From a virus: DNA of 64,000 nucleotides. Below are positions 856-32,046 of this stretch, one piece after another. The notes under the pieces are model-generated. The model was not told the origin of the DNA. It did not search any database and saw nothing but the letters and a program-made list of their open reading frames with translations. Numbering within the stretch: position 1 is the first letter of the stretch; every line of letters starts with the position of its first letter. Position numbers and translations under genes: made by a program. Location: the IMG/VR virus record IMGVR_UViG_3300020411_003736, positions 66,381 to 130,380 of that record. One strand, 5' to 3'.

Positions 856-1145
856 ATTTCTTCTATCCTCTTTGTCTTATCACATATTAATAAATCGTAT
901 ACCGGCTTCTCACCAGCTGATAATTCATGATGTTTACAACCCCACTCATCTAATTGTTTTTTGGTAACTTCATACCAATCTATTCCAGTTCCACTACCTC
1001 TCGCAGTCCAATACTTTATATGATGTCCATCATCATACAACTTATTAATTTTATTTATATTCTCATAAATTGGTTCAGCATTACCATAGTCTCCATTATA
1101 ATCACCTGAACATATTGTGTCGTCTATATCAACAAAGATAATCAT
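852..1145 (-). CDS. Small HAD-family phosphatase (capsule biosynthesis type)
   Basis: VDIDDTIC (DxD), WTARG, KP.YDL..DK motifs. Confidence 0.8.
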   Translation of the reverse strand: MIIFVDIDDTICSGDYNGDYGNAEPIYENINKINKLYDDGHHIKYWTARGSGTGIDWYEVTKKQLDEWGCKHHELSAGEKPVYDLLICDKTKRIEEI

Positions 1146-2200: not shown

Positions 2201-2209
2201 ATCATACTC

Positions 2210-3839: not shown

Positions 3840-4041
3840 TAAAAACCTCTACACAAAGAACATTAGCATCATTCACCATTACAATTCGACCATCTTTCAA
3901 TTCCAACTTAGTCATTTGACCTTGTTTAATTTTTGAAGTAGAGACACCCTCAAATGTCCTCTTAACTCCACCCACAAAATGAATTATCTGAGTTACATAT
4001 TCGCCTTTTTCTTTCAATGATGATTGTAAATCCTTCATCAA
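3829..4041 (-). CDS. Hypothetical protein
   Basis: 70 aa ORF overlapping both neighbours by a few nt. Confidence 0.6.
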   Translation of the reverse strand: MMKDLQSSLKEKGEYVTQIIHFVGGVKRTFEGVSTSKIKQGQMTKLELKDGRIVMVNDANVLCVEVFSEE

Positions 4042-6169: not shown

Positions 6170-6178
6170 AATATTCCC

Positions 6179-8726: not shown

Positions 8727-8727
8727 A

Positions 8728-9264
8728 TTAAACTTTTACAGCCAACACTCCCAAATTTTTTATGGGTGTTCCCCAATACTGTGGTTCTAACTCTGGATAA
8801 AATTCATCAGTTAAATCATACTGCCATTCTCCAGCGTCAAATGTATAAGCATCAAATCCCAAAGCTTTAAAGTCTTTAGCCAAATCAACATCTGTCCACA
8901 TATTCTGATGTGCCATAAGTGGATTCCAAGCTACATAATCAGCAGGTGGAAATAATGTTTTCTTCATAGACCTAAATGGTAACTTACCATCAATCCATAA
9001 TTTAATCACATATCCACCATCCGTATGTATAACTTTAATACTACCACCTTCTTTTAATTTCCTTTGCATATCCAATAAAAATTGTTTATACTTTGGTATA
9101 GGCACATGTTCCAATGTATGTTCAAGAAAAAATTCATCAACAACACCATCCTCTTCTATGAACCCATCTAAATCTAATATATCATGATTTACATCACAAT
9201 CATCCTCTAAATTCACATGTATATATTCTGTACCTCTTCCTCTACCACCTAAATTATATTTCAT
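8728..9264 (-). CDS. SAM-dependent methyltransferase-like protein
   Basis: YNLGG, EHTLEHV, LKEGG motifs. Confidence 0.65.
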
Positions 9265-10220
9265 GATAATAATCCTATATCATTTTCTACCATTCGACTT
9301 ACCATTTCTTCAAATGATGTTTTTGGTGTCCATCCTAATTCAACTCTGGCTTTCGTTGAATCACCACACAAAACATCCACCTCAGCAGGCCTCATATATC
9401 GTGGATCCTGTTTTACATAGTGACTCCAATCTCCAACACCAACACAATTAAAAGCTGCATCTAAGAAATCTCGTATTGAATGTTCTACTCCAGTCGCAAT
9501 CACATAATCATCTGGCTTATCTTGTTGTAACATCAACCACATACATTCTACATAATCTGGTGAATATCCCCAATCTCTTTTTGAATCTAAATTACCTAAT
9601 GTTATATGATCCTGTAATCCCAAATGGATACGAGCGACACCATCAGTTATTTTACGAGTTACAAATTCTTTACCACGTCTCTCTGATTCATGATTAAATA
9701 AAATACCACTTACATTAAACATATCATAAGACTCTCTGTAGTTCTTTGTCATCCAATGAGCATATAGTTTAGCAACTCCATAAGGTGAACGAGGATAGAA
9801 AGGTGTGTTCTCATTTGCTGGATTCTCTACCATCTTACCAAACATTTCAGATGTTGACGCTTGGTAATATTTCACATCTTTACCATACTCTCTGATTGCC
9901 TCTAGCATTCTTAATGCACCCATTCCACTAACATCGCTTGTTTGCTCTGGTGTGTTCCAACTCTCCCCAACAAATGATTGTGCTCCTAAGTTGTAAACCT
10001 CATGTGGATTTGACTCCCTCAATACTCTGACCAATGAATTCTGATCTGTTAAATCACCATTAACGAAAGTTATCTTACCTTCAAGATGACCTGTATTAGT
10101 TCTATTTTTTGTTGATGAACGCCTCTCCATACCATAGACTTCATATCCCTTTTCCAATAGTAAATCAGCAAGATAACTTCCATCCATACCATTTACACCC
10201 GTAATTAATGCTCTCTTCAT
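9261..10220 (-). CDS. gmd: GDP-mannose 4,6-dehydratase
   Basis: [49 protein letters not shown]. Confidence 0.95.
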
Positions 10221-11005
10221 TATAAAAATCTCCTTGCAATTCTATTAAATGTTGTATCATTACTCATTATCTCTTTAACTGATAAATCCTTTAAGTAAGG
10301 ATCCCAAGATATAGATTCCCACACATGGTGGCAATAAGCACCATCCAATTGTATATCTTGTTCAAACATCAACTTAATACCAACTTGACTAGCAGTAGGT
10401 TCGTTGGAATGATAGAGTGGATAATGAAAACTACTATATGGTTCTATATGTAAAAGTTCTGGATATTGCTTTGATAATATAAATGGCATTTGAACTGCAT
10501 GTTCAGCCCAATATTGGTCTCTACCTTTAGACCTATGTGATTGATAACTCATCAACCAATGTTTAAGAAACTCACTATCCTTTTCTGCCAAAATAACACC
10601 ATCACAAAGCCCCTCAACATTTCCATCAGGTGTACCTTGTATTCCCAAAACACATTTGTTTTCCAACAAATCAGTAAATGGTTTCACCGATATCGTATCA
10701 ACATCCATATAGATACCACCCTCTTCTAAAAGAACTTGTAACCTTATCACACCAGTTTGATGTGCTACATGTAAAAGTGGATTTCCAAAAATCTCTTTTG
10801 GTGGTTCTATCTTTACAAGCTCCAAATCATTTTCTATTTTTTCAAACCATTCACCACTCGGCTTATGTTTATAATAAAGATAAGCTTTCTCTGGCTTATT
10901 TAATTCTATAGCCGATTTGACTGAAAGGTAATGGCACAACTTCCACGGTTTACCACCAAAATCTTCAGACAAACCAAAAACAAAATGCATTTTATTTGGT
11001 ATCAT
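10220..11005 (-). CDS. Glycosyltransferase, DXD/GT32-like
   Basis: [25 protein letters not shown]. Confidence 0.85.
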
Positions 11006-11846
11006 AATTAACCTCTAATTTATCTGGCACACAAATCAAATTATGACCAGAAAGTAATTCATCATTTTCCATTAAGACCACTTCATCCCCCAAATTTTCT
11101 ATGTCTAATTTATTAGCAACTTCATCATAAGCTGTATAACCAATATTATTAATGACATTCATCATTTCTCGCATTTCTATAGAGTTCAGTCCAGTATAGA
11201 TTTCCGTTATTATTACAGGAGAATCTCTATATATTATATCAACAAGAGTCTTTAAAATGTCTTTATCATGTCCCTCTGTATCAATTTTTATTAAAGAAAC
11301 TTCATTGTCAATTAAACTATTTTTTTCTAAAAAACTATCTAAATTTACACCCCAAACATCTATAGGTATCTGATGACCAGTAACACCTACACCAAAATCA
11401 GTTCTCTCAGCATAACCACCATTACACAACCCATCATCTGAATAATGAAATCTCAATGGACCTTCATCATCAGATACAGCATAATTAAATGGAATTATGT
11501 TTGGATGTAATTCTGCATTTTTTTCTAAAACCTCATAAGTAGCAGGATTACATTCAAATGAAATAACTTTATCAGCAAATAAAGAATAAGCCACAGACAT
11601 ATTACCACTCTGTGCACCAATATCAATAACTGTAGAATTTGGTTTTATGATTTTAGAAATATTATTTAATATCTCATCCGTAAATAAAGAAATTAATTCC
11701 CATTCACCTTGCATTGGATGTAACCATCTATGATACTTAAAAGTTATTCCATTTCTTTCCAACTCAACAATTTCCGTATCATAATGATTATTGGTTTCCT
11801 TCAAAACATTTAAGAATTCATCCCTATAACCTTTCATGTCTTGCAT
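10992..11846 (-). CDS. FkbM-family methyltransferase
   Basis: IDIGAQSG, SFECNP, IKIDTEGHD. Confidence 0.88.
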   Translation of the reverse strand: MQDMKGYRDEFLNVLKETNNHYDTEIVELERNGITFKYHRWLHPMQGEWELISLFTDEILNNISKIIKPNSTVIDIGAQSGNMSVAYSLFADKVISFECNPATYEVLEKNAELHPNIIPFNYAVSDDEGPLRFHYSDDGLCNGGYAERTDFGVGVTGHQIPIDVWGVNLDSFLEKNSLIDNEVSLIKIDTEGHDKDILKTLVDIIYRDSPVIITEIYTGLNSIEMREMMNVINNIGYTAYDEVANKLDIENLGDEVVLMENDELLSGHNLICVPDKLEVNYDTK

Positions 11847-11847
11847 A

Positions 11848-12483
11848 TTAAATTAACCCACTTATCTCTTCATTATAAAATTTATTCTGTTCTACTTGTT
11901 TATCTATCGTCTTTGGGTGTAGTATACAAAATGGTTTATCTGTTGGTAAGGTTGAATAGGTTTTATATCCAGTTATCATCTCATGTACTTTCTTTTCCCA
12001 ACGGATGTTAGGTCTATTTTTAAACAACCTACCTTGCCAATCAGGAAAGTTTATCCAACCATTTTCATTCAATCTGTATCCATACATCCTACAATGTTGT
12101 TCTGTTATTCCATCCACAGTATTTATTCTTGGCACCCAAAATAAATCAATAGTTGGATTACCATCAATAATTTCATGAACATTCTGAATCATCCACCTAC
12201 TTATCATCTCATCAGCATCAAGATTAAAACTATACTCACCATTACACATACCTTTCAAATGATTCTTTTGTGAAGCAAAATCTTTCAATAGACTTCTTTG
12301 TTCAAATACTATATCATGTGCTGATACATAGAAATCTAATATCTGTTTTGTCTTTTCATTATCTGAAAAATCGTCTAATATGACTATTTCATCATTGGGA
12401 TTTTTCCACTTTACTAAGAACTTTAATAACTTCTCCAAAGTCTTATCTTCATTGTGTGTTAATATAGAATAACTTATTTTCAT
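11848..12483 (-). CDS. Glycosyltransferase family 2
   Basis: ISYSILTHNE, LDDFS, LDADE, VHE. Confidence 0.88.
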   Translation of the reverse strand: MKISYSILTHNEDKTLEKLLKFLVKWKNPNDEIVILDDFSDNEKTKQILDFYVSAHDIVFEQRSLLKDFASQKNHLKGMCNGEYSFNLDADEMISRWMIQNVHEIIDGNPTIDLFWVPRINTVDGITEQHCRMYGYRLNENGWINFPDWQGRLFKNRPNIRWEKKVHEMITGYKTYSTLPTDKPFCILHPKTIDKQVEQNKFYNEEISGLI

Positions 12484-12962
12484 TAATCAAAAGGACTTCC
12501 ACCTGGTTTGTGTATGTATTCTTCTTGTATCGAAATAACTTTCATAGACGATAACTTTGGTGTCTTATAACTACGATAGGATCTAACAAATACATTATCA
12601 GCTTTAATTATGTCATGATAAAATCTATCATTGTCCATATCTGTTGGTTCTTTTGGGTGTGAAATTTTTATCCTAAAATAATCTTCTTTCAATCTGACTA
12701 AATTTTCCATTCCAGTCTCACCCTTTCTAAAATCGATAAAATAAAATAATCTTTTAAGTTTTGATGGTGGTAAATAATTTAAATTCAAACCTTCTATAAT
12801 TCTTTTCTTTGGATCACGATGTAAAAAAAGAAGAATGGGTTTTGGATCAGTAACATTAGGTACAGAATAATTAAATGTCAGTATCATTCCAGGCAACAAC
12901 CTTCCCAATGTCATTGTCTGTTGTTTAATTATTATTTTACTATTGTTGTATCTCGTTGCCAC
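12483..12962 (-). CDS. T4 gp2-like DNA end protector
   Basis: F.Y...D..P..L and GLNLNYLPP, similar to the gp2 GLNLHYL motif. Confidence 0.55.
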   Translation of the reverse strand: MATRYNNSKIIIKQQTMTLGRLLPGMILTFNYSVPNVTDPKPILLFLHRDPKKRIIEGLNLNYLPPSKLKRLFYFIDFRKGETGMENLVRLKEDYFRIKISHPKEPTDMDNDRFYHDIIKADNVFVRSYRSYKTPKLSSMKVISIQEEYIHKPGGSPFD

Positions 12963-13341
12963 TATGACTTTCCATTGTTCTTACTATATTAAAAGCATCA
13001 CTAAAATGTGGCATCTCAACCTTTGTAGACTCCGTTCCCAACTTAGTTATAATATGCCATATCAATTTCCCATCCTTAACATCAGGCGTTATATAATAAT
13101 TTTCACTTGTAAAAACTCCCGGCAACCAATTCCTACCACCTATATTTTTACAAATAGATTTGAATTTATCATCTAAATCATCAGTTAATTTATCTTTATA
13201 ATCACTACTTGACGCATACCCACAATGGACACACTGCATACTTTGTCTTTCATCACCAAGTAAAATTAAAGTGTCTTCTTCATTCCCCTCTTCCACACAG
13301 CAAGGACACTTTACTTTCAATCTCATATCATCGAAACTCAT
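12940..13341 (-). CDS. Zinc-ribbon hypothetical protein
   Basis: CPCC and CVHCGY pairs. Confidence 0.6.
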   Translation of the reverse strand: MSFDDMRLKVKCPCCVEEGNEEDTLILLGDERQSMQCVHCGYASSSDYKDKLTDDLDDKFKSICKNIGGRNWLPGVFTSENYYITPDVKDGKLIWHIITKLGTESTKVEMPHFSDAFNIVRTMESHSGNEIQQ

Positions 13342-14738
13342 ATCTTCTTCAACTTTGGTAAATTAAGTTTTTTAGGTGTAGATGATTCATTAGAATCTCC
13401 CACCTTTTTCAATTTAGGTAATTTCAAAGAAACCTGCTTTGGTACATTTGCAATTATATCATCAATAATTTTACTAAAATCATTAGCCATCTTTTCTAAA
13501 GAAAAATCTTTTCTATTCTTTTTACCAAGCCTCTTAGCTTTTTTTAAAATACTACTATGATTTTTATGTAAAAGTCTTAATTTTCTTTTTACATCATCTT
13601 CATTAACATCATACCACTTAGATTGTTCAACTACTATTGGATGCCAAACATTCGATTTTGGAACTTCTTTTAATTTACCCTGTATTATCAATGCCTCAGA
13701 TGGATTTAAGAAATCCATGTGACCACTCCAATTTGGAGCAATTACAGGTAAGTCACAACAACTAGCCTCTAACATCGGCCTTCCAAATCCTTCACCATGT
13801 GTACAAGTTAAGAAAGCCTTTACCTTAGAATGATTATATAACATAGCCATTTGTTTAATTGTCAAATCCCCATGTATCAAATATACATTAGGAATTTGAA
13901 AATCTCCAAATTGTTCCATAATACCTTTTATTTTTTTTGTTGTCTCATGTTTATCCATAATTGAAAAACCAGAACCATTCGTTTTTAACAACAATGCGGG
14001 CATCTTATCTTTTGGAACATTTGTAAATGCTTCCAAAAATGTTTTTATCATCAAAGAGATATTCTTTCTATCCTCTCCATAACCACCCTTTCCCCACAAA
14101 CCAACATGTAAATAAACAAAATTTTCTTTTTTTAATAATTCATCCAAATCATACACAAATTTTGATTTCACATCCTTCAAATCAAATGGTTTATAAACAT
14201 CAATATCAACACCTTCCCCCAATACAGAAATTGGTTTAGTTAATTTATGCTCTCCCAATTTTACTTTTTGACCATTCCTATCATCTGTCTTATCATAAAC
14301 AGTTCCCGTAAAAGTTTTAGCAGTAAACTTTGATGGTACTATATTTAAATTCATTTTATTACACCCCTCAATGAATTCAGGAGAAACTATATCAGTCTCA
14401 ACACCAGCAGTTATACCTAAATTATATTTACCAACTTGAGCAAATTCATTAGGTATTCTTATATCAATATAAATATCTGGTTGAGAATCTAAATTGGTTT
14501 CTACTGATAAAACATCCAATAACTTTTTATGCCTTGGTACTTCTTTATCTAAATGATTTCTAGGTGTTTCCCCCCACTTTGTATCAATACACTTAATATC
14601 CAAATCCTCTCTATCCATAATCGAATAAAACAGAGAGCGAGCATGATCACCATAACCACTTCTTGTATTAAATGGTGCTGTCATAACAACTTTTGTTTTC
14701 ATATCTTCTCCATATAATATCTTTGCCTCGGTTCCCAA
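13338..14738 (-). CDS. Glycosyltransferase family 4
   Basis: RSGYGDHAR, HGEGFGRPMLEA, WSGHMDF; real start is probably the second Met (about 14705). Confidence 0.88.
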   Translation of the reverse strand: MGTEAKILYGEDMKTKVVMTAPFNTRSGYGDHARSLFYSIMDREDLDIKCIDTKWGETPRNHLDKEVPRHKKLLDVLSVETNLDSQPDIYIDIRIPNEFAQVGKYNLGITAGVETDIVSPEFIEGCNKMNLNIVPSKFTAKTFTGTVYDKTDDRNGQKVKLGEHKLTKPISVLGEGVDIDVYKPFDLKDVKSKFVYDLDELLKKENFVYLHVGLWGKGGYGEDRKNISLMIKTFLEAFTNVPKDKMPALLLKTNGSGFSIMDKHETTKKIKGIMEQFGDFQIPNVYLIHGDLTIKQMAMLYNHSKVKAFLTCTHGEGFGRPMLEASCCDLPVIAPNWSGHMDFLNPSEALIIQGKLKEVPKSNVWHPIVVEQSKWYDVNEDDVKRKLRLLHKNHSSILKKAKRLGKKNRKDFSLEKMANDFSKIIDDIIANVPKQVSLKLPKLKKVGDSNESSTPKKLNLPKLKKI

Positions 14739-16063
14739 TTATCAAAAGCGCCATCCATAGAATCTATAAAATTTTGTCCCATAGCTTTAGCTGTCATTTG
14801 ATTTTCTTCACAAAATTTCTTACCTAAACCACCAAGTCTTTTTCTCTCATCTCTACCCATATCATAAAACTCACGAAGAGCAATGGCAGCATCTTCAGGC
14901 TCACACCTATCATCCCAAATATATGGTGTCGGTGGTGAACCTTGTAATGAACGACTTGTCGGCCATACAGGTTTTACCCATTCTCCGTGTTCTTTATAAC
15001 GGCCTTTATGATTACTACCAAGTTCAACATAATCATCTGGTGTCAATAAGTTTCCATCATCATCTCTAAATCCACATTGGTCTTGTAATCCACCTGTAAC
15101 ATTAACAATAATTGGTGTTCCAACTGTAAGTGCTTCAGCACTACCCAATCCGAACCCTTCATTACTCGCTAAATTAATATAAACATCCGCTGAATTAAAA
15201 ACTAAATTCATATCCCCATCTTCAAAAGAATTATTATGTATATGGTGTGTGAAACAAACATCATATTCTGGCATTAAATGCTTCATCAGTCTTGGTAAAT
15301 CAGTTCCATTTTCATCGCTTGGTGTACAATGAAATATCAATACACATTCTTCCCTTTGTTCAGGAGTTAACTCATCCATAAAGTATTTATAAGCCATAGC
15401 CACATCACCAGGTTGCTTTCTTCTGATGTTTCTGTTACTATAAAGAATTCTAAATTTTTTATCTGTTAACCCAAATTTATCATTAAACTCCAACAGAGAA
15501 TTATCATCATCATCCACTTTTTTATATCTTCTATCTGAAATACCGTGTGGCACATAAGTAATTTGCCAATCTTCATAATGTGGTAATAGTCTTTTATTAA
15601 TACCATATGTTTGTTTTGATATACCCATTAATAAATCACTACTAAGATAGTAATTGGTATTGTATTGTGGATCTGGCAAATCATCCCAAATATTATAATA
15701 GAATATTGGAATATCCCTACGAATTTCTGCCTCTATATTATAAAGCCAAGTCCAAAACCTTGGATCTGTATAATGTAATATAGCATCTGGTTTTTCTCTT
15801 TCCAATATAACTCTAACTATATCAGGATTACCATAACCACTCGTAGGATATATTGTTAACTTAGCATCCTTAACACCTGAAATTTCAGCTATAGCTTTAT
15901 CCATATTAACAACATTTCCTTCTTCAGGATGTTTTATTGCACCAGCTAATTGTACCCAATCATATTGGTGAAGTGTCTCAACAACAATATCCTTAGATAC
16001 AGTAGCTATTCCACTATGCATTCTTAAATCATCAGACATCAATAATATCTTCTTCTTAGCCAT
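14699..16063 (-). CDS. Glycosyltransferase family 4
   Basis: SDDLRMHSGIA, VPHG, NRNIRRK, NEGFGL..AEAL..G.P. Confidence 0.88.
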   Translation of the reverse strand: MAKKKILLMSDDLRMHSGIATVSKDIVVETLHQYDWVQLAGAIKHPEEGNVVNMDKAIAEISGVKDAKLTIYPTSGYGNPDIVRVILEREKPDAILHYTDPRFWTWLYNIEAEIRRDIPIFYYNIWDDLPDPQYNTNYYLSSDLLMGISKQTYGINKRLLPHYEDWQITYVPHGISDRRYKKVDDDDNSLLEFNDKFGLTDKKFRILYSNRNIRRKQPGDVAMAYKYFMDELTPEQREECVLIFHCTPSDENGTDLPRLMKHLMPEYDVCFTHHIHNNSFEDGDMNLVFNSADVYINLASNEGFGLGSAEALTVGTPIIVNVTGGLQDQCGFRDDDGNLLTPDDYVELGSNHKGRYKEHGEWVKPVWPTSRSLQGSPPTPYIWDDRCEPEDAAIALREFYDMGRDERKRLGGLGKKFCEENQMTAKAMGQNFIDSMDGAFDNWEPRQRYYMEKI

Positions 16064-18313: not shown

Positions 18314-18852
18314 TACTTTTCTCCTTCTACATATTTTTCTGCTGATTGTATCATACCATTGACTGCATCATCAACCTCTTCTAAAAATCTATCTGTCTCT
18401 GCATCATAATCGAGACCTTCTTCTTCACATTCGTCTTCCCAAAGTCTTTCTGGCGAATCATCCTCATACCATTTAAAGCCTTTTTTACTACCATATCCAC
18501 CAACTAGGAAATCATCACTCTCTTCATCCGCTGTGAACTTTACCTTAACATCTTCATCCAATTCCGCCATCTTTTCTACAAACCTCTCCATAAACCCTTC
18601 TGGAAAACTCCAAGCCGAACAGAAAGTAATATGAGTTTCATTATTATAGTCATCCATATCCTCAACTAATATCCATTTAGGACCTATCTTATCCATTGGA
18701 TACTTTTCATATTTGCCAAAGATAGGTTCTACTGTACCACGAATATGTGGTTCATTCCAACCTGATAAGTCACCGTACCAGTCCCATAGTTTTTCATGAA
18801 CTTCTTTTTTCTCCGAAATAACTTCTGTTCTAGTCCATACATGATTAGCCAT
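18313..18852 (-). CDS. Hypothetical protein (YubB ferredoxin-like fold possible)
   Basis: MANHV start, G.KW, F.SAWS.P pattern. Confidence 0.45.
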   Translation of the reverse strand: MANHVWTRTEVISEKKEVHEKLWDWYGDLSGWNEPHIRGTVEPIFGKYEKYPMDKIGPKWILVEDMDDYNNETHITFCSAWSFPEGFMERFVEKMAELDEDVKVKFTADEESDDFLVGGYGSKKGFKWYEDDSPERLWEDECEEEGLDYDAETDRFLEEVDDAVNGMIQSAEKYVEGEK

Positions 18853-19268
18853 TATTTACCCCACTTATTGTTCTTAACTATTGTAGCCATAATACCATAG
18901 TTTGATACATCTAAATAAGCATCCTCTAATGGTTCATCTACAGCCGAATTTCTTTTACTCATCAACATATTTTTAAGTCTTTGTATTTTATCATTCATCC
19001 TAAACCAAAGACCTGTAAGTGATAAATGTACTTCTTCTGGTGTAATCAATTGAGTACCGACTGATATATTACCTGGACCATAATCATGTTGTTTTCTACA
19101 AAACAATTCATATTGTTCTCTTTGCAACCTTTTGAATTCTGTAGTCATTTCGGGCCATTCCTTTTCCATTTGTTCTACAACTGGATGGACCCCATTGACA
19201 CTTTTTCTCTCTACATCATCAGCAGGATCTTTGACTGTAGGTTCTAATTCTCTTTCTCTAATATTCAT
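18852..19268 (-). CDS. Nucleotide-modification-associated domain 1 (DUF1599/MazG-like)
   Basis: KQHDYG, RMNDKIQRL, EPLEDAYLDVSNYGIM. Confidence 0.8.
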   Translation of the reverse strand: MNIRERELEPTVKDPADDVERKSVNGVHPVVEQMEKEWPEMTTEFKRLQREQYELFCRKQHDYGPGNISVGTQLITPEEVHLSLTGLWFRMNDKIQRLKNMLMSKRNSAVDEPLEDAYLDVSNYGIMATIVKNNKWGK

Positions 19269-19291: not shown

Positions 19292-19321
19292 AATATACAA
19301 CATTTTTCATATATCATACAA
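19292..19321 (-). promoter_or_regulatory. Sigma70-like promoter TTGTAT-N18-TATATT
   Basis: Upstream of the Nmad1 gene; same pattern at four other sites. Confidence 0.45.
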
Positions 19322-19937
19322 GCTTTTTTATTTTTCTTTTTATTTTTTTATTTAAATAATAAACATATATATTTTTTGGTGCTCTATCTTTAAAAAATAT
19401 ATTTTCGTCACCACTATCATAGCGCCGTTTTATCTCCCTACTATATGGTCTGTACTTTTGATTCATAGACCTACTATGCATTTCTTTCCCATCTACCATC
19501 AAAACAGTACCTTTAGCAGTTTCACCCAAATACTCAAAGTTAGTGGCTTTATATATCACACCATCATGACCATAATGCGTATCAGCAAAAGAAACCACAA
19601 CTTCCATATCTGTATATTGTTTTAACCATTTAAATGTTTGTCCTATGAAATAACTTTCTGTATTCTTAGGCGTATCATCTATACAAACTAATCTTCTAAG
19701 TTCCAAACACTTAGTTGGATTGATTGGATTGTATTTAGCTGCAGTAGATGGCATTGATGGGTAAGCATACATCATAGCTCCAATCATTGTTGGCAATCCA
19801 AAATTACCTTCTCTGAATAAACCAAAGTGGTATAGAGATTGAACTCCATTTACATTATGTGAATAGTGATGTTTCTCTATAAACTTAGCTATCGATTTCC
19901 TCGGTACTTCTTCAACTGTATATTCTGTTACAGACAT
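19314..19937 (-). CDS. Mom-like DNA adenine modification protein (GNAT fold), copy 2
   Basis: HHYS, ELRRL, KNTESYFI, SFAD..GH.G.IYKATNF.Y.G. Confidence 0.8.
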   Translation of the reverse strand: MSVTEYTVEEVPRKSIAKFIEKHHYSHNVNGVQSLYHFGLFREGNFGLPTMIGAMMYAYPSMPSTAAKYNPINPTKCLELRRLVCIDDTPKNTESYFIGQTFKWLKQYTDMEVVVSFADTHYGHDGVIYKATNFEYLGETAKGTVLMVDGKEMHSRSMNQKYRPYSREIKRRYDSGDENIFFKDRAPKNIYVYYLNKKIKRKIKKLV

Positions 19938-23740: not shown

Positions 23741-26275
23741 CTAAAAAAATCTTTCTACTGTATTTTCTTTATCTACAGGCATATCCCAACTCAGAGCATC
23801 ATAAAACATCTTTATCTTCTTTGTTAATGCCCTATCAAATAATTTATCCCTATCTATATATTTCTCTATAAAATCCATCACTTCTTCAGGATCGTCATAA
23901 CCTTTATATGCAATAGCATCCAATTGATATGGATTGTTCTTTAAATACACCCATTTAATTTTACTATGGTCTCTAATAGGTTCTAAATGATTAGCTTTAA
24001 AATATTTTAATAAATCATTATAAGAAACCGAAGCCTTTACATGTACTGGAGCTCCAGATTTCATTGTGGTAAACATATCCTTACCCTTACCTTTTTGTGA
24101 ATATTTCTTAATTCCCTTTACTCCACTTGGTAGAGATATATCAACAATATCATTGGAATCTAAACTCTTTTTAAACTTCAATATAAACTCATCTATCTTA
24201 TCTTTCTCAATGTTATGTAAAATAGCCTTTAATACATTGGTCATAAACTTTTGAAATGCTGGTGGGAATGAACTCCTTACAATATCCAAACCCTTAACAT
24301 CAAGTTTCTCTACTTCCAAACCACCATCATTAATAATCCATTGACCATATCTCTTTTTAGTAACCCAAAAGGCAGACTTAGCAATAACTTCTTGCTTAAT
24401 ATCAAATCTATGTTCACCCCTTACATTTAAAAACTTCTGAGCAAAATAATTATAAGACTTATTAATATAACTCTGTACCTCATCAGCAATTTCTAATATC
24501 TGTTTAGTCATAAACTTATCATCACTCAAATCTGCATTAGGAAATCTCTGTTTAACCAATGGTATGGCAGAATAGAAAACCGAATCAGTATCAGTATAGA
24601 TACAATAATCCTCTTTAGTTTTTAAACTCTGATTGTAATAATGATTGGCAATCTTCTCTGTGAATTGAATTAACTTCACACCTGTAGTAGTGGTAGCCTC
24701 AGCATTATCTATGTCATAAAACCTAAAGACTGTCAAACCCAATACCCCATAGAAACTATTTAAGAGAATCTTCTGAACATATTGTCTTCTATCGAAATAA
24801 CCATGTAACTCATCATTACCCTCTTTACCATACTTCTTTGCCAAACCTCTATACTCCACCCTTTCATTAAACCACTTCTCAAGTATTGCAGGTATGATAC
24901 CTTTTTTATCCAAATGATACAATATCCCATTTGAAGATATAGACACCTCATTCTTACTAAAGAAATCTTTTAACTCACCAGTAGAAAATCTACGAATTAT
25001 CTTTTCACCCTTTCTAACTGTATATGTCTTTTCCTCTTCTTTTAAAAATTCTTCAGCATCCCAACCTTCAATTTTACCTATCTTTGTTTCAGGTGATATA
25101 TTGAGTGTCATAATAGTGGATGGATACATAGAAGTTAAATCTAAATCAAATACCCACTCATACCTACCTGGATTTGGATCTTTCACATAAGCACCACTAA
25201 ATCTACCAGCAGAATCATCATATTTAGCATTATGTCTTTTACTTGGAGCAACTAAACCAAGACTTCTCAAATAAGTCAACATAGCACCTTCAATGTATCG
25301 AGAACTAAAGTAAACCTCTTCATAAGGTATCCTACCCATATGTGATACAGCCTTAGCCAAATCAATTAACTTTAACTTCTTTTCCAATGCTACAATAATC
25401 TTAACATCAACTAAATTATATTCAACAAACTTTTCAATATCATTTTCTAATAATTGGTCTAATGTACCTTCATACTCAACCTTACCCATACCAACTTCTA
25501 TCTGACCTATATAATCCAATCGATAACTAGACCTATTGACATAAGTGAATTTCTTATACAACTCCAAATAATCTAACGAACTAACACCAGCTATTCTATA
25601 TCTCTTTTTGTTCTGATTATACACAACTTTACCTATTGGTGAAAGAGCATTAGCTACTTCCAAACCCATAACTTGAGCTAATCTATTATACAAATAAGGT
25701 ATATCGAAATTATCACTATTCCAACCCGTAACTATAGTTGGTTTAAAATCCATCCAATACTTCATCAACGCCCGTAACAATTCATATTCCGAATCAAAAA
25801 TAAATACATTTTTTCGTGAAGTGGATATTTTTTTATCATTACTCCTGAAGTTTTGGTTGTTACCTAATACATAAACTTTATATTCTTCATCTATATTGTT
25901 ATAAAGTGCGACAGAAGTGATTTTATTCTTAGCTTCTTCTGGCATTGGGAAACCATCTGTAACTTCAACCTCAATATCAAAATACAACTCACGGTGATTT
26001 TTGGATGGTTCATCAGAATCAGGATATCTATCAATTAAAATACGAGTATCTAATGGTATATCAGATTCAAATACTCTACCACTCGTAAAATCCTCTTCGG
26101 TCCAATAATTAACCTTTTTTAACTTATCTCCATAGATGGAACGATATTGCCCACCACCATCTTTAACATAAGCATAATTTTTATATATAAAATTCTGATA
26201 ACCAGCTACATCATCCCAAAGATGAACTTCTACTTGATTATTCGCTCGTTTCTCAGACCAAATATTCTGATACAT
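23741..26275 (-). CDS. gp43: Family B DNA polymerase
   Basis: FDIE, GWNS..FD exonuclease motifs; DLTSMYPS, KILLNSFYG, YTDTDS, KKRY. Confidence 0.96.
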   Translation of the reverse strand: MYQNIWSEKRANNQVEVHLWDDVAGYQNFIYKNYAYVKDGGGQYRSIYGDKLKKVNYWTEEDFTSGRVFESDIPLDTRILIDRYPDSDEPSKNHRELYFDIEVEVTDGFPMPEEAKNKITSVALYNNIDEEYKVYVLGNNQNFRSNDKKISTSRKNVFIFDSEYELLRALMKYWMDFKPTIVTGWNSDNFDIPYLYNRLAQVMGLEVANALSPIGKVVYNQNKKRYRIAGVSSLDYLELYKKFTYVNRSSYRLDYIGQIEVGMGKVEYEGTLDQLLENDIEKFVEYNLVDVKIIVALEKKLKLIDLAKAVSHMGRIPYEEVYFSSRYIEGAMLTYLRSLGLVAPSKRHNAKYDDSAGRFSGAYVKDPNPGRYEWVFDLDLTSMYPSTIMTLNISPETKIGKIEGWDAEEFLKEEEKTYTVRKGEKIIRRFSTGELKDFFSKNEVSISSNGILYHLDKKGIIPAILEKWFNERVEYRGLAKKYGKEGNDELHGYFDRRQYVQKILLNSFYGVLGLTVFRFYDIDNAEATTTTGVKLIQFTEKIANHYYNQSLKTKEDYCIYTDTDSVFYSAIPLVKQRFPNADLSDDKFMTKQILEIADEVQSYINKSYNYFAQKFLNVRGEHRFDIKQEVIAKSAFWVTKKRYGQWIINDGGLEVEKLDVKGLDIVRSSFPPAFQKFMTNVLKAILHNIEKDKIDEFILKFKKSLDSNDIVDISLPSGVKGIKKYSQKGKGKDMFTTMKSGAPVHVKASVSYNDLLKYFKANHLEPIRDHSKIKWVYLKNNPYQLDAIAYKGYDDPEEVMDFIEKYIDRDKLFDRALTKKIKMFYDALSWDMPVDKENTVERFF

Positions 26276-26307
26276 TTAGATTATAAAATCCCCATTTTCG
26301 ATATGTA

Positions 26308-26337
26308 AATTTAACCATAAAACCATATAGATGTCAA
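26308..26337 (-). promoter_or_regulatory. Sigma70-like promoter TTGACA-N18-TAAATT
   Basis: Upstream of PolB, just after a terminator. Confidence 0.55.
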
Positions 26338-26344
26338 GCTTTTT

Positions 26345-26379
26345 TTAAAATAAAATGGGGGCTATATTTCAAGCCCCCA
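26345..26379 (-). terminator. Rho-independent terminator after the TonB-dependent receptor
   Basis: TGGGGGCT/AGCCCCCA stem (26356-63/26372-79) followed by a U-rich tail on the minus strand. Confidence 0.8.
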
Positions 26380-26389: not shown

Positions 26390-29122
26390 TTAGAAATTGA
26401 CCGATAGGCCAAGATTGAAGTGTCTTGGTGTTCCCAAGAATACTTCGGCATTATGAGCTGCGTGAACTTTGTCACCATACCCATTGTACTTACTGTTATC
26501 AACAGCATCTTGTACATAAACATCATCAAGCGCATTAAATAAATGTGCAGATAATGTCATATCATAACCAGCGATTTGTGGTAGTTTGTATGATAGATGT
26601 AAATCAAGTTTGGAATAACCTGGGGCTTTCCATACTTGAGCTCTATCTTCTTCACCATCAACTTCACGAGCATCAGGACTCCAATCAGCGTAATTGTCAT
26701 CATACATTTTGTATAGTCCTTGGATACTTAGTCCTTCAATTGGTTTCAATGTCAAACCACCAACATAAGCAGTTTGTGGCATATCTCCAACTTTCAACTC
26801 ATTAAGAGCATAAGTATATTGAGTAGTCATTTGTCCTACGACCTGACCTTCTTCATTATACTCCATTTCTTGATAATCACCTATTGCGTCACCATCAAAG
26901 AACCAATCACCTTTGCTGAAAACAAAGTCAACATCCACCATTTCATGTAATGCAACTTTTGCTTCAACTTCAACACCAGTATGACTTTGGTTCACACCCT
27001 TTAGATAAATAATATCAGTATCACCTGAATCACCTTGACCTGTTTCTACAGATTTTGTAAGGTTTCTATCTTTCCATTGAGTGTTATAGAAACTACCTTT
27101 AAGATTAACCAAATCACTTGCGTATTTTCCACCAACTTCAAAGCTTTGAAACTTCTCATTGTCTGGATTAGAAGCGACTGTACCATCATAGGCAATTACA
27201 TTATCCAAAATCGGTGGTTTTTCAACATATCCAACATTAGCAAATGCTGACATTCTATCATCAAGATTGAATACACCACCACCTTTCACTTGAAAAGTAG
27301 TAATGTTATCAGCAACAACTTTAGAAGCATCAACTGCAAAATGGTCTAAGTAAGAGTATCCAATAGTAGATATTCCACCCATACCATAAAGGTTGAACTT
27401 CTGTATGTCGTATTTACCTTGTAGGAAAGCACCAAACCAATCAACCGTAGTTTCGTTGTGATAAGCGATAATATCACCTAACCCAACTTTCTTACCATCA
27501 GGTGCGTTATCATCAGCAAAGTCTACATAGTAGTCTCCACCAAGTAAATCACGAACCTCACGAGCGTGTTCGATACCAGCAGTTCTCCAATCAATACCGA
27601 CTTGTACCTCTAAATCATCATTTACATCATAATTTAGTTTGGAAATCAATCCATAGGTATTTTGTCTGTTAATTGAATTACGAAGTATACCAGTTGACCT
27701 ATTCTCACTATCTGACCAAGCTGAATCGATGTTTGCTGAGTTTTCAGCAATCTCACCGTTCCAATCCCATGTCCAAGGTGAACTTGAGTACCAAGCATTC
27801 CCTTCGATAGCAGGAAATCGTTTAACACTCCCATAAGTACCTGTACCACCTCCTGAACCACCACTCCAATACAAGATTGAACTTAGTCTAACTTGGTCAT
27901 TTACATCATAGAAATGATTAAGATTGACTAATGGTTTATGAAAGAAATTTTCTCTTTCGTTCAGTAGTGTTGAACTGTACCTATCAGTTGTTCTCGCACC
28001 ATACATATACCAATATTGTTGGCCTGTGTATGATGGATCAACGGGTGCCCAGTTCTGATTGAAAAACCTACCAGCTTCATGCTCAAACTTCTCACCTTCA
28101 GCGAAAGCCTGAGTATCATATCCATCAACATCACCAGCCAACTCTTGTGAATAAGTTGCTATGTTCTGTTTATATAGGTTTTGTCCATGTCTTTGTGGAG
28201 CACCAATTGCATATAACTCAAATCGTTGGTCATCAGATACAGCATAAGATGTACCAAGATAATAAGCCCAAGCATCTGTCCAAGTACCATCAATAAAACC
28301 ATCACCAGTTTTACGAACAACAGTACCACTAACAGCAAGCTTATCACCAATTAAACCTGAGTTATAATTCAAAGTAGATTTAAGGAATCCACCCTCACCT
28401 ACTTCTTGTTTGAACTTACCACCCTTTTCGTGAGCAGCAGGATCGGTGATTATATTCATTGTTCCACCAATGGATGGTGTAGCAAGATTTACAGCTGATA
28501 GACCTCTTTGCATCTGAATGGAAGAAGTAGCATCACCTACACCATCCCAATTAGACCAATAGACCCATCCGTTCTCCATATCATTTTGGGGAACACCATT
28601 TATCATTACTGCAACATTCCGTTGATTAAAACCTCTCACATTTATACGAGCGTCACCAGCCCCACCACCTTGTTGAGTAGCATATACACTTGGCGTAGTA
28701 TTAAGAATCATTGGAATATCTTGAGAACCGAGCCTCACTTCCATTTCAACTTTATCTACAGTAGTATAAGCAACAGGTGTCTTTTCGTCAGCCCGTGAAG
28801 CCAAGACTTCAAGCTCTGACATTGTAACAGCGTCAACTTCTAATAAGAAATTAACTGTTCCAACTATGTCATTCACCGTAACAGTATTTGTTACTGATGA
28901 ATACCCAATAAATGAAGCAGTTACATCATAGTCACCTTGAGCACCAACATCAATAGTGTATTTACCAGACTCGTCTGTTACACCACCTTTATCAGTTCCC
29001 TCAACAACCACATTAGCTCCAACCAAAGGGTTTGATTCCGCATCTGCAACTACACCTACAATGGCTTGACCAAACAAACCTGTCGTGAGTAGTACAGCTA
29101 CGATTAGATTACGATTATTCAT
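26390..29122 (-). CDS. TonB-dependent outer membrane receptor with N-terminal carboxypeptidase-regulatory-like domain
   Basis: Signal peptide, PLVGANVVVEGT..G..TD..G.Y, plug motifs (NVRGF, VMINGVP, QRG..IGGTMNIIT), NALD..Y, C-terminal Phe. Confidence 0.93.
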   Translation of the reverse strand: MNNRNLIVAVLLTTGLFGQAIVGVVADAESNPLVGANVVVEGTDKGGVTDESGKYTIDVGAQGDYDVTASFIGYSSVTNTVTVNDIVGTVNFLLEVDAVTMSELEVLASRADEKTPVAYTTVDKVEMEVRLGSQDIPMILNTTPSVYATQQGGGAGDARINVRGFNQRNVAVMINGVPQNDMENGWVYWSNWDGVGDATSSIQMQRGLSAVNLATPSIGGTMNIITDPAAHEKGGKFKQEVGEGGFLKSTLNYNSGLIGDKLAVSGTVVRKTGDGFIDGTWTDAWAYYLGTSYAVSDDQRFELYAIGAPQRHGQNLYKQNIATYSQELAGDVDGYDTQAFAEGEKFEHEAGRFFNQNWAPVDPSYTGQQYWYMYGARTTDRYSSTLLNERENFFHKPLVNLNHFYDVNDQVRLSSILYWSGGSGGGTGTYGSVKRFPAIEGNAWYSSSPWTWDWNGEIAENSANIDSAWSDSENRSTGILRNSINRQNTYGLISKLNYDVNDDLEVQVGIDWRTAGIEHAREVRDLLGGDYYVDFADDNAPDGKKVGLGDIIAYHNETTVDWFGAFLQGKYDIQKFNLYGMGGISTIGYSYLDHFAVDASKVVADNITTFQVKGGGVFNLDDRMSAFANVGYVEKPPILDNVIAYDGTVASNPDNEKFQSFEVGGKYASDLVNLKGSFYNTQWKDRNLTKSVETGQGDSGDTDIIYLKGVNQSHTGVEVEAKVALHEMVDVDFVFSKGDWFFDGDAIGDYQEMEYNEEGQVVGQMTTQYTYALNELKVGDMPQTAYVGGLTLKPIEGLSIQGLYKMYDDNYADWSPDAREVDGEEDRAQVWKAPGYSKLDLHLSYKLPQIAGYDMTLSAHLFNALDDVYVQDAVDNSKYNGYGDKVHAAHNAEVFLGTPRHFNLGLSVNF

Positions 29123-29129
29123 AAATCGT

Positions 29130-29186
29130 CTCCTGTATTTCGTTAACGAAAAGGCACATTTTTCTACAGGTGTGCCATCTGCCTGT
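29130..29186 (-). promoter_or_regulatory. Candidate H-type pseudoknot 5' leader of the receptor gene
   Basis: ACAGG/CCUGU and GGCACA/UGUGCC stems; CCUGUA is also complementary to UACAGG at the RBS. Confidence 0.5.
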
Positions 29187-29208
29187 CCGCTTTTTATGTA
29201 TGTGAATT

Positions 29209-31218
29209 TTAATTGGATTCCCCAACAGGAGGTATTTCATCTACCATAGGAACAATCTCGCAAACATCATTATTGCAAAATTTATCTACATCTGCCTCTT
29301 CACCCTCAACACCAACAAAACTTAAATATTTAAGTTTTGAAACTTGGTCGTTATATTCATCTTCACTTATTGCTTCGTAGGGCATTTGTTTATAAGCTCC
29401 TAATGGATGTCTTGGTAATAACGATATACCTTTTAATCTATATTGAAAATATTTCAGAACATGTGGTAGTTCTTCTGCTTCCGTTTCAGGATCGAATGTA
29501 GCAGTACAACTTACTTGATTATCTGCCCAATGTCGTTGAAGAAAAGCGGCTAAACTGAATTGTTCCCAAATCGAAAGTTCAGCCGCAGTTCTTATACCCT
29601 CTCCAACATCAACTGGCACTTCTACCACCATTGTTGTATCCTCTGAACCAAATGCTGGTTCCACCTTATAATTTGCCTTCTTTAATGGTTCTATTAATTC
29701 TGAATGTTTTGATAATCTCATTCTTCTTATATAAAATCTTGACTCTGGATAATGCATTCCAGGTGTTGCACCTACTAAAAGTGAAACCGTACCACTTGGT
29801 TTTACTGAAGTAGTTTTTATTGACTTTGGTATAGCAAAGAAATCTGAATAAACCTCGTCCAATCTTTGAATCTCATTATATCCATTCTCTAACCAAGTTC
29901 TTAATTCTTCCATTCCATGTTTTGTAATAAACTGAGCAACACCACTAACAGAACAACCTATTCTTCTGTTTCTCAACATAACTCTGTTGGTTTCACTCCA
30001 ATGTGTTTTACCTAATGTTACAGTCTTAGCATACAAATAAGCATACTTTAGAGTTTTTTTATAGTCCTCTAATGAAGTATGATTATATGGAAATGTTTCC
30101 ACTAAACAACACAACTCATAACTTTCTAATGTTTGTTCCAAACAAGGATTACCACCCGCTGCTCTATGGTCTTTATCATCACCACCATTTTGCATACGAG
30201 AATATTTTTTCATATTCTCTAACCATGCAAATCCTGGTTCACCATTATCTGTAATTCTCTTACATATGTCAGTATAATCCATCCCAAGTTCTGCATATAC
30301 TGAATTATTAGAAGTCCAACCAAATTGTTCTCTATGTGGATTGGCTTGATAATTTTTTAAATCTAAATATTCATCTGAATCTGGATCTCCAAATACAATT
30401 TCAGCAGTTCTACGAACATTTCCTGCTACAACACACTTACCTATAAGGTTCATTATATCTACAATAGTAGTTACTGTAATTGGTTCACCACTATTTTTAT
30501 CTAACACCTTTCTCACATCTTCATGTACTTCTTCCAATGGTTCGTATCCACTTGATACTCCACCAAAACCTTTTATTGGTTCTCCCGCACCTCTTATCTT
30601 TGTATAATCAAATTCCATTGGCGCTTGACCATGAAAATAACTCTCTAATAAAAGTTTCAGAGACTCTACCCAACCCTCACGAGTATCAGGTATTTCATAG
30701 ACTTGTTCATCCCTATCCTTTTCCACCCCTTTGACTATTATCTCTCCTGCACCTTTGGTATCAAAACCAACTCCAACACCCAACATACTTGCATCCATAA
30801 GGAAACAGAAAGGTTTAGCATAGTCTTCCTTTAGTGTAGATGTAGATACAAATGCACAATTATTTAATGCAGCATATAAATTTCTTTCTTCAGTTATAGC
30901 AGTTCCCATAGCCCATAACCCACGACCAGGTGGTAAGAATTTCATATAAAACATTCTATCATACATTTCTTGTGCTGATGCTTGTGCTCTCCAAGGATTC
31001 CACCCTAATTGATGAGATTCAATCCAATTCTTTTGCATATTGTAAGTACCTTCTACAACCCGTTGTACTGTCTCCCACCATCTTTCATTTTTACCATTTT
31101 CTTTAATTCGAGAATAAGTTCTCATATAAACCAATTCACCCAAACCGTTAAATCCGAATGGTGGTTTTTTTCTTTTATATTTAGAAACAAAATTCTCCGA
31201 TAATGTAAATTTACTCAT
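29209..31218 (-). CDS. nrdJ: Class II (adenosylcobalamin-dependent) ribonucleotide reductase
   Basis: FLPPGRGLW, LNNCAF, GNVRRTAE, NPCLEQ, KPSGTVSLL, C-terminal C..D.C. Confidence 0.92.
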   Translation of the reverse strand: MSKFTLSENFVSKYKRKKPPFGFNGLGELVYMRTYSRIKENGKNERWWETVQRVVEGTYNMQKNWIESHQLGWNPWRAQASAQEMYDRMFYMKFLPPGRGLWAMGTAITEERNLYAALNNCAFVSTSTLKEDYAKPFCFLMDASMLGVGVGFDTKGAGEIIVKGVEKDRDEQVYEIPDTREGWVESLKLLLESYFHGQAPMEFDYTKIRGAGEPIKGFGGVSSGYEPLEEVHEDVRKVLDKNSGEPITVTTIVDIMNLIGKCVVAGNVRRTAEIVFGDPDSDEYLDLKNYQANPHREQFGWTSNNSVYAELGMDYTDICKRITDNGEPGFAWLENMKKYSRMQNGGDDKDHRAAGGNPCLEQTLESYELCCLVETFPYNHTSLEDYKKTLKYAYLYAKTVTLGKTHWSETNRVMLRNRRIGCSVSGVAQFITKHGMEELRTWLENGYNEIQRLDEVYSDFFAIPKSIKTTSVKPSGTVSLLVGATPGMHYPESRFYIRRMRLSKHSELIEPLKKANYKVEPAFGSEDTTMVVEVPVDVGEGIRTAAELSIWEQFSLAAFLQRHWADNQVSCTATFDPETEAEELPHVLKYFQYRLKGISLLPRHPLGAYKQMPYEAISEDEYNDQVSKLKYLSFVGVEGEEADVDKFCNNDVCEIVPMVDEIPPVGESN

Positions 31219-31278: not shown

Positions 31279-32046
31279 TCATCTATCTATCGTATTTCGA
31301 CTAAATAATGATTTTATTCTTTTTATTTCCACATCTTCTATGTCCGCTTCTTTTGGATAAGGTAAGATAGGATGTTTTAAGTTTTTTAGTATTTTCCTCT
31401 TTTGTTTTTTACTACCTAACAAATAAACATACCTATGTTTTCTCAATTCCTTTTTTATCCAAAAATCTTTCTCAACTAAGGTACTAATCTTCTCTATATC
31501 GTTTGTACCATAATAAGGGAATATAGTTCGTGGATGTTGCCACTTACCATCCTCTTCCCATTTAAATAACCAACTATCCGATGGTCTTATTTTGTTACCC
31601 TGATACAACCAATTTGTTGCCTGATATATAGTCCCGACATGACCTTGTTGTGGATCTGAATATGATATCAAAGCTTTGATATCTTTTCTATTCTTCTTTA
31701 ACCAATCAAAACTCTTTGAAATAAACCAAGATTCAATATTTTTACCATAACCATCATGAACAAATAACCTTACCAACTCAAAAACAGATTCCCTCGGTAT
31801 AATATCCGATATAGAAGCACCAGTAAGCCTACCTATTGGATCACCATAACATATTGTACCAATTAACTCTTCTTCCGGCTCATCAAAAAATGGGTGTTCT
31901 TCACCCGTCAATCGATATAAACCCAAAGCCACACTACATTTAGTCCATTGTGCAGAATAGTGATATTTTATAATCATATTCTTTGCTAACGATTTTGGTA
32001 TCTTCCTAATAGACAATTTAGTTTTATCAAAATACTCAATCATCAC
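31279..32046 (-). CDS. Mom-like DNA adenine modification protein (GNAT fold), copy 1
   Basis: YHYS, ELVRL, KNIESWFI, SYSD..QGH.G.IYQATNW.Y.G, KHRY, PYPK. Confidence 0.82.
   Translation of the reverse strand: MMIEYFDKTKLSIRKIPKSLAKNMIIKYHYSAQWTKCSVALGLYRLTGEEHPFFDEPEEELIGTICYGDPIGRLTGASISDIIPRESVFELVRLFVHDGYGKNIESWFISKSFDWLKKNRKDIKALISYSDPQQGHVGTIYQATNWLYQGNKIRPSDSWLFKWEEDGKWQHPRTIFPYYGTNDIEKISTLVEKDFWIKKELRKHRYVYLLGSKKQKRKILKNLKHPILPYPKEADIEDVEIKRIKSLFSRNTIDR

Follow-up and report, generated by a model that had tools for sequence, protein, structure and literature searches.

A TonB-dependent transporter gene forms an optional cassette in marine T4-like phages that probably infect SAR406/Marinimicrobia

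We examined a gene for a TonB-dependent transporter (TBDT) that lies between the genes for a ribonucleotide reductase (RNR) and a DNA polymerase in the viral record IMGVR_UViG_3300020411_003736 (130,380 bp, estimated to be 71% complete). The window, by which we mean the whole stretch of DNA analysed, comprises the last 64 kb (64,000 nucleotides) of this record. The TBDT gene is a self-contained optional cassette consisting of a pseudoknot leader, a ribosome-binding site (RBS), the open reading frame (ORF) and a terminator, and its copies in phages are under purifying selection. We consider it most plausible, at a probability of about 0.65, that the gene encodes a host-derived importer, which a large clade of marine T4-like phages has kept as an optional cassette and which would be importing in SAR406/Marinimicrobia cells. 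An auxiliary uptake gene had been one suggestion of the initial annotation, and it remains the best reading of an intact gene with conserved transport parts; as expected of an auxiliary gene, it is host-derived, under purifying selection, variably present and part of a bona fide phage genome.

The ORF, on the minus strand, starts with ATG and encodes 910 aa before its stop codon. Pfam finds CarbopepD_reg_2 in the N-terminal extension (61.8 bits, cut-off 32.2), followed by Plug (PF07715; 48.6 bits, cut-off 23.9). A β-barrel enclosing this plug is predicted by an AlphaFold2 model with a mean predicted local distance difference test score (pLDDT) of 73.4 and values of about 80 in the barrel blocks; the strand number, to be set against the 22 of a TBDT barrel, was read by eye from the model and is inexact. 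When this model was compared with the PDB by Foldseek, the best match was Fiu (6bpm, E 1.1e-23), and further matches included FhuA, PqqU, YncD, FoxA and FecA (E 1e-23 to 1e-20, template modelling score about 0.46). ESM Atlas features match clusters of PF00593 at 0.99, the clusters being generic TBDT ones. Sequence matches in the PDB are confined to the extension and plug, and the best are the N-terminal parts of the SusC/RagA-type chains 9gbc_A and 9hfj_A. Read by eye, without a predictor, the N-terminus MNNRNLIVAVLLTTGLFGQA is signal-like, being basic, then hydrophobic, and ending in GQA. This putative Sec signal peptide is accompanied by a C-terminal aromatic residue for the β-barrel assembly machinery (BAM), F910, which does not vary across an alignment of 63 sequences. 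In the same 63 sequences, E105, A108, S109 and R110 are invariant within ELEVLASR (~aa 103-110), a candidate TonB-box stretch. The description of an intact 910-aa receptor with signal peptide, N-terminal extension, plug, barrel and terminal Phe is thereby confirmed in every detail, and the gene does have its own RBS, 7 nt before the ATG, and its own terminator, a hairpin and T-run right after the stop.

The same gene recurs in many phages. A scan of viral contigs returned 347 stretches that encode TBDT relatives, and we analysed the best 80 of these, which are 71–87% identical except for one fragment that is 100% identical (L077). Two phage contigs with the same gene order had been misbinned, one into a metagenome-assembled genome (MAG) labelled Flavobacteriales (L082) and one labelled Methanobacteriota (L083), and their inclusion gave 82 viral loci. 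The typical gene order is RecA, 5'-3' exonuclease, DnaB, the class II RNR NrdJ, TBDT, usually a family B DNA polymerase (PolB), a 238-aa ORF and the clamp loader. All 76 loci with an upstream flank have NrdJ before the TBDT gene (the other six begin inside or right at the TBDT gene), and 71 of these 76 have no more than 101 bp between the two. PolB is downstream in 58 loci and directly adjacent (≤174 bp) in 29; three loci (L030, L083 and L070) have no PolB in a downstream flank that is 4.8 kb or longer in each. In L030 (8930-14519), and also in L083, a DnaE-type Pol III alpha replaces PolB, after the TBDT and nucleotide genes.

All long ORFs of the window are on the minus strand, and Pfam finds among them the gp23 capsid, gp19 tube, tail sheath, gp15-like, gp32, RecA/UvsX, DnaB, clamp loader and PolB proteins, gp25 being encoded in the other half of the record. 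By its gene content, the phage is a T4-like myovirus. The closest cultured relative of its PolB is that of Microcystis phage Mel-JY01, at 44.6% identity. A bacterial receptor in such a genome could have arisen as an assembly chimera or through host contamination of the viral contig, and the GC content of the TBDT gene (0.35–0.40) is slightly above the typical 0.30–0.33 of the contig, but similar values occur in other segments, for example in the capsid gene region. The recurrence of the gene order in 76 independent viral loci argues strongly against this explanation, as do a DNA contig from another study, which spans 28664-29520 and bridges the nrdJ/TBDT junction without differences, a second contig (L077/L170) that is 100% identical to the window, and a phage-specific leader (see below) that is found in none of 78 cellular loci. 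The window stretch was also found in sequencing runs of 14 studies. We regard an artefact as refuted here, its probability being negligible. The initial argument that flanking core phage genes speak against host contamination therefore holds, with nrdJ upstream and PolB downstream, and at the nrdJ/TBDT junction, one of those for which a check had been proposed, the bridging contig favours a genuine locus.

Whether the gene is fixed in these phages was visible from a survey of 78 loci anchored on PolB (L170-L247). Of these, 27 have the TBDT upstream and 36 are uninformative; in 11, nrdJ (77–89% identical) is followed by PolB with no TBDT, and the remaining four belong to a distant group with a 45% PolB and an unrelated RNR. 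The three closest PolB relatives (85%; L171, L172 and L186) are all in the TBDT-less set. In L183, L184 and L190, likewise without the TBDT, the nrdJ stop is immediately followed by the PolB promoter-like block, and these empty sites place the cassette between ~29208 (after the nrdJ stop) and ~26346 (the terminator). The receptor had been called inserted between RNR and polymerase, which is true in this precise sense. L186 retains ATTTCACA, a remnant of the 5' edge of the cassette. At the other end, the terminator hairpin (26379-26356) has eight pairs, six of them G-C. The nrdJ–PolB slot also takes other cargo, namely a dUTPase, an SLT transglycosylase, a DNA methylase and unknown ORFs of 483–504 aa, and, in five loci scanned, a glutamine-synthetase-like ORF of ~330 aa takes this place before or after the TBDT.

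The leader of the cassette contains a 34-nt H-type pseudoknot. We aligned 41 of 46 distinct leaders (five near-duplicate or N-bearing rows were left out), and 97.3% of the cells pair, with compensatory changes in 5 of the 11 pairs (15 cells). This level of covariation is matched by 1 of 500 shuffles, and slid registers give 0–2. The pattern occurs once in the window, in 76 of the 82 viral TBDT loci and in 0 of the 78 cellular loci; among the PolB-anchored loci, it occurs only in those that bear the TBDT. When only nested pairs are allowed, the leader folds no better than is usual (z -1.87), as expected for a pseudoknot. Rfam has no family match to the leader at the gathering threshold and only chance-level matches at E≤10. 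The TTCACATAC motif recurs just 5' of the pseudoknot in many related leaders. We considered it as a general phage promoter word and rejected this, as the window holds a single exact copy; with one mismatch there are 24 window matches against 27.7 expected. A small second hairpin between pseudoknot and RBS is present in part of the relatives only: by eye, some loci have TTCATTAATGAA with paired changes, and others lack it. The AGGAG/GGAG block of the RBS is aligned in all 41 leaders. The pseudoknot of the T4 gene 32 mRNA is an operator, and preQ1-I is a small H-type pseudoknot riboswitch; the TBDT leader resembles them in its H-type fold, its small size (~34 nt), its A-rich loop and its place before an A/U-rich stretch and the RBS. 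It differs in having no Rfam match and in being unlike the leader of the phage's own gene 32, in which we saw no similarity by eye. It could act as an operator, sensor or stabiliser, and we consider it a candidate new RNA control element.

The nearest cellular relatives of the gene point to its origin. In a scan with one genome per species, 114 stretches encode relatives; the best 80 of 114 were kept, and removal of the two phage contigs (L082 and L083) left 78 cellular loci. These match the window TBDT at 54–72% identity in their best segments, and 56 of them carry one of the labels Marinimicrobia, Neomarinimicrobiota and Fidelibacterota. Another 17 are unnamed, and five are labelled otherwise, among them a contig from a 'Winogradskyella' MAG (L104) that is nearly identical in the tree to a Marinimicrobia contig (L105). 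In a sample of the phylum, 70 of 121 evenly drawn genomes match the TBDT at E≤1e-50, with 37–73% identity. The chromosomal neighbourhood is conserved and of a housekeeping kind: of 68 host loci, 36 have DnaG and 29 an unknown gene of 327 aa, SRAP lies directly upstream in 23, and CvpA and YqeY occur in 20 and 18 loci, respectively. Five loci (L085:46-4242, L086, L099, L101 and L131) illustrate a conserved host cluster upstream of the orthologue, comprising a 315-aa protein tailed for the type IX secretion system (T9SS), a GBBH-like_N protein, an unknown 320-aa protein, an NPP phosphodiesterase and an S1/P1 nuclease; by its content, this cluster is possibly an extracellular nucleic-acid scavenging unit.

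A quick maximum-likelihood tree of hand-picked full-length sequences (19 from the 82 viral loci, 44 from the 78 cellular ones, and two outgroup rows) puts the 44 cellular rows in one clade, with a Shimodaira–Hasegawa-like approximate likelihood ratio (SH-aLRT) support of 100, and the 19 phage rows on the other side. The phylogeny against host receptors that had been proposed as a check thus sets the phage rows next to a single cellular clade. Given vertical, syntenic inheritance in the host phylum, we infer one old capture by phages. On gene kinship alone, the phage host is probably SAR406/Marinimicrobia, which upholds and sharpens the earlier hint at a host in the Fibrobacteres–Chlorobi–Bacteroidetes (FCB) group.

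After this capture, the gene has been held under constraint. Over 171 phage pairs, the ratio of nonsynonymous to synonymous substitution rates (dN/dS; NG86 pairwise) has a median of 0.16, and the closest pairs give 0.10–0.18. In contigs whose PolB is only 52–55% identical to that of the window, the TBDT is still 80–82% identical. When identity is broken down by region and given as phage-phage/cell-cell/phage-cell, it is highest in the plug (0.91/0.90/0.89); extracellular loops (0.79/0.62/0.61) and barrel strands (0.76/0.70/0.65) follow, and the N-terminal extension (0.56/0.57/0.42) and periplasmic turns (0.59/0.44/0.38) come last. Of 304 loop columns, 106 are conserved in both the phage and the cell group, and only two columns of the alignment are fixed differences between the groups, of which the extension and a loop hold one each. 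Because the outward-facing and translocating parts are conserved, we read the phage protein as having retained the ligand and transport function of the host protein.

If so, the TBDT mRNA would be made during infection of SAR406/Marinimicrobia, with its translation or stability set by the 5' pseudoknot. The precursor would be exported by the host Sec system, folded into the outer membrane by the host BAM via the terminal Phe, and energised by the host TonB-ExbBD through the conserved TonB-box/plug region. It would then import the same substrate as the chromosomal orthologue, and phage production would have more of a nutrient that limits it. What we infer here is the timing of expression, insertion into the membrane, coupling to TonB, uptake itself and the benefit. 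RNA-seq contigs from two libraries of one study lie on the ORF (~26720-28930), some being identical over 91–279 nt. They are compatible with transcription of the gene; such contigs give neither strand nor level, and DNA carry-over is possible. Contigs of the RNA runs X17 and X18 hardly cover nrdJ and polB, if at all, while those of DNA runs do, and this has no bearing on relative expression.

Several observations weigh against the reading of the TBDT as a host-derived importer of SAR406 phages. The Pfam barrel model PF00593 has no match to the protein at E≤1e-3, NCBIfam gives weak N-terminal matches only, with every full-length model missing it, and residues 97-225 of the AlphaFold2 model, which include the plug, have a pLDDT below 50. 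The plug is therefore too poorly modelled for a ligand pocket to be read, so that the structural model asked for at the outset supplied the fold, through its barrel and Foldseek matches, and not the pocket. No substrate is named by NCBIfam, by PDB sequence matches, by Foldseek (generic siderophore, metal and PQQ transporters) or by the ESM Atlas. Neither TonB nor ExbB was found in the 130-kb record at its 71% completeness (ExbD was not searched), and Pfam shows no TonB or Exb protein in the other 66 kb of the record; function would therefore rely wholly on host parts. The gene is also dispensable, given the 11 loci without it. As regards origin, the outgroup (L162 and L163, gut contigs of 30% identity) roots the tree inside the phage grade. 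This root is unreliable because the outgroup branch is 2.66 long, and the direction of transfer is therefore inferred from host synteny, not from the tree. Finally, contigs of the clade have been binned as Flavobacteriales and Methanobacteriota, which does not agree with the proposed host.

What the transporter does could be explained in other ways. TBDTs are common phage receptors, and the phage copy might replace, mask or act as a decoy for a receptor that is the host orthologue, with no need for transport. This receptor swap or superinfection exclusion, also raised in the initial annotation, would be in keeping with the optional nature of the gene, with a large surface-sugar gene cluster in the phage (see below) and with the FhuA-pb5 and FhuA-Llp complexes among the Foldseek matches. 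We disfavour it as improbable, since the conserved loops and plug argue against a receptor variant or decoy: the loops are as conserved as the strands both among phages and between phages and cells, the single fixed loop difference is the opposite of what an escape variant would show, and the plug and TonB-box region, which a decoy does not need, are strongly constrained at a low overall dN/dS. Adjacency to the B12-dependent NrdJ had suggested a further role, that of a BtuB-like cobalamin importer feeding this enzyme, and some relatives carry the automatic name 'outer membrane cobalamin receptor'. The close spacing of the two genes notwithstanding, nrdJ is kept without the TBDT in 11 relatives and the slot also takes unrelated cargo, and the adjacency is therefore better seen as positional; the expected co-occurrence held in one direction only, in that the TBDT comes with nrdJ (76/76) and nrdJ does not need the TBDT. 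The 50 best fold matches listed do not include BtuB. A riboswitch scan with Rfam found none in the window, in the locus of the phage's own record that spans the gene (L001) or in nine cellular orthologue loci. In five of five Marinimicrobia genomes that hold the orthologue (G001-G005; L164-L168), the sole cobalamin riboswitch (RF00174) precedes a different long TBDT ORF of the CarbopepD_reg/Plug type (these ORFs are partial; Pfam finds both domains in three and one domain in the other two), and in the one compared (L166) the identity to the phage TBDT is 23% over the N-terminal part. The B12-controlled receptor of the host would therefore be another paralogue, and the riboswitch-linked TBDT is in its own right likely to be the BtuB equivalent of the Marinimicrobia phylum. 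Vitamin B12 is, on these genomic grounds, an unlikely substrate, and the idea of a cobalamin supply to NrdJ, which was not supported, ranks as very improbable.

Salvage for dNTPs, through import of nucleosides, nucleotides or short fragments of nucleic acid, is a somewhat better candidate, albeit a doubtful one and a weak lead. A deoxynucleoside kinase is found within 6 kb in 9 of 68 host loci in several arrangements (L095, L111 and L115 have it directly downstream, and L113, L117, L126, L128 and L133 upstream of SRAP), and an S1/P1 nuclease in 8 and an NPP phosphodiesterase in 6 of them, upstream and beside the T9SS-tailed protein. In the L030/L083 lineage, the phage TBDT is followed by a nucleoside 2-deoxyribosyltransferase, a YfbR-like 5'-deoxynucleotidase, ThyX and a dUTPase, and in L004 a dUTPase is inserted beside it. 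These phage neighbours are confounded, however, by the position of the slot within a nucleotide and replication module. Any of the three host genes occurs in only 17 of 68 loci, much of which is synteny shared by descent; the kinase is present in 121 of 121 genomes of the phylum, which makes its co-occurrence with the TBDT uninformative; and Pfam finds no S1/P1 nuclease, NPP or deoxynucleoside kinase in the other 66 kb of the record. We know of no TBDT with a nucleoside or nucleotide cargo. It is tempting to speculate that the whole cassette is a regulated salvage device, in which the TBDT imports nucleic-acid breakdown products and the pseudoknot is a new sensor or operator, although we would not put the chances of this high. 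Deoxynucleosides, nucleotides or short oligonucleotides from seawater would then feed replication of the phage genome, which exceeds 130 kb, in a ~2-Mb host, and the leader would couple synthesis of the importer to the state of dNTPs or of the replication machinery. If true, this would be the first TonB-dependent nucleoside/nucleotide importer together with a new phage RNA control element.

Table 1. Positions of the cassette, its neighbours and related cargo (window coordinates unless a locus is given)
Feature	Position	Strand	Basis or detail
NrdJ, class II (B12-dependent) RNR; upstream neighbour, clade core gene, 5' border of slot	29209..31218	-	Pfam RNR_Alpha 146 bits, RNR-II_ins_dom, Ribonuc_red_lgC
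TTCACATAC motif, 5' edge of cassette	29198..29206	-	one exact copy in window
H-type pseudoknot leader, 34 nt	29153..29186	-	S1 ACAGG/CCTGT; S2 GGCACA/TGTGCC; A-rich third loop
Small second hairpin, between pseudoknot and RBS	29138..29151	-	TTTCG-TTAA-CGAAA; part of relatives only
RBS AGGAG	29130..29134	-	7 nt before ATG; block aligned in 41 leaders
TBDT ORF	26390..29122	-	Pfam, AlphaFold2, Foldseek, alignment
Signal peptide, ~aa 1-20	29122-29063	-	eye reading
CarboxypepD_reg extension, aa 22-105	29059-28808	-	Pfam
TonB-box/linker, aa 97-112	within TBDT ORF	-	alignment, putative
Plug, aa 113-221	28786-28460	-	Pfam
Barrel, aa ~234-910	28423-26393	-	model
Intrinsic terminator, end of cassette	26346..26379	-	TGGGGGCT-TGAAATAT-AGCCCCCA then TTTTATTTTA
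PolB promoter-like block, 3' border of slot	26280..26337	-	TTGACA-18-TAAATT and TTTACA-18-TATAAT
PolB, family B DNA polymerase; downstream neighbour	23741..26275	-	Pfam DNA_pol_B and exonuclease domains
Glutamine-synthetase-like cargo	L002:4939-5925, L051:1369-2370, L035:7337-8314, L041:7061-8056, L048:7957-8946		

The phage genome has further features apart from the cassette. A large block for sugar and nonulosonic-acid biosynthesis (window 157-16063, minus strand) includes NeuB, a cytidylyltransferase, a DegT aminotransferase, a GDP-mannose 4,6-dehydratase, epimerases, an FkbM methyltransferase and four glycosyltransferases, and its content suggests modification of surface or virion glycans. 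Three paralogues of the Mom family (window 31279-32046 and 19314-19937, and L249:12380-13159) and a DUF1599 'nucleotide modification associated' protein (18852-19268) make DNA hypermodification possible. The record itself also encodes defence-like genes at ~53.5-56.4 kb (L250:15499-18376), namely a GmrSD_N and HNH protein and a DruA-like protein, as well as a POPDC-like membrane protein with a cyclic-nucleotide-binding domain (L248:728-1369), and the window contains an actin homologue of the Volactin family (58416-59465; 243 bits).

SAR406/Marinimicrobia are abundant and uncultured, and to our knowledge almost nothing is known about their phages. The TBDT gives a handle on the host for a phage clade that is seen on hundreds of viral contigs, and it implies that viruses could rewire the uptake of infected cells from seawater. 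The conserved loops, together with the presence/absence polymorphism, amount to a natural experiment on the substrate of a conserved, uncharacterised SAR406 transporter. The available excerpt of one study reports abundant TonB-receptor transcripts from Marinisoma (PMC13096325). In our literature search, we came across no account of T4-like or SAR406 phages that carry a TBDT; PMC5628999 mentions neither TonB nor Marinimicrobia, and 10.1101/310524 and 10.64898/2026.08.25.747067 have no bearing on the subject.

In the literature, the nearest case is that of Mar_Mega_1, a marine megaphage with a putative SusC-type receptor, where, in the part of the source available to us, a phage TBDT is likewise read as an auxiliary uptake gene (PMC9723777). 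Similarity to such genes of marine and other megaphages is limited to the plug region (for LR745206, 24% of the query covered at 28% identity), and these megaphages are of another type and have another predicted host, with no conserved cassette or leader described in that part of the source (PMC9723777). Among cellular systems, the SAR406/Marinimicrobia chromosomal orthologue (CarboxypepD_reg-Plug-barrel, ~905-990 aa, near dnaG) is closest: it aligns collinearly over its full length (54–73% identity in best segments), its plug is 89% identical, and domain order, TonB-box region and terminal Phe are shared. The phage copies differ from it in forming their own group, in their pseudoknot leader, in their place within a phage replication module and in being optional. 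SusC/RagA proteins of Bacteroidota share the CarboxypepD_reg extension before the plug, yet the phage protein scores 56.9 bits with TIGR04056, far below the cut-off of 368 and over the N-terminus only, and Pfam finds no SusD-family protein among the phage cassette neighbours or 59 host neighbour proteins. With BtuB, it shares the TonB-dependent plug-barrel fold and a position next to a B12-dependent enzyme; it is much longer, has an N-terminal extension and has no cobalamin riboswitch either here or at the host orthologue. Other phage-borne genes of this sort are cyanophage pstS, for a protein that binds its ligand in the periplasm, and the gene of a passive porin, Lc, in phage PA-2. Their products are, like the TBDT, host-derived envelope or transport components that are variably present among related phages. 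Unlike them, the TBDT would be a TonB-dependent gate that is energised and comes with an RNA leader of its own, which suggests that phages can carry a complete gate of this kind and not only soluble or inner-membrane uptake parts.

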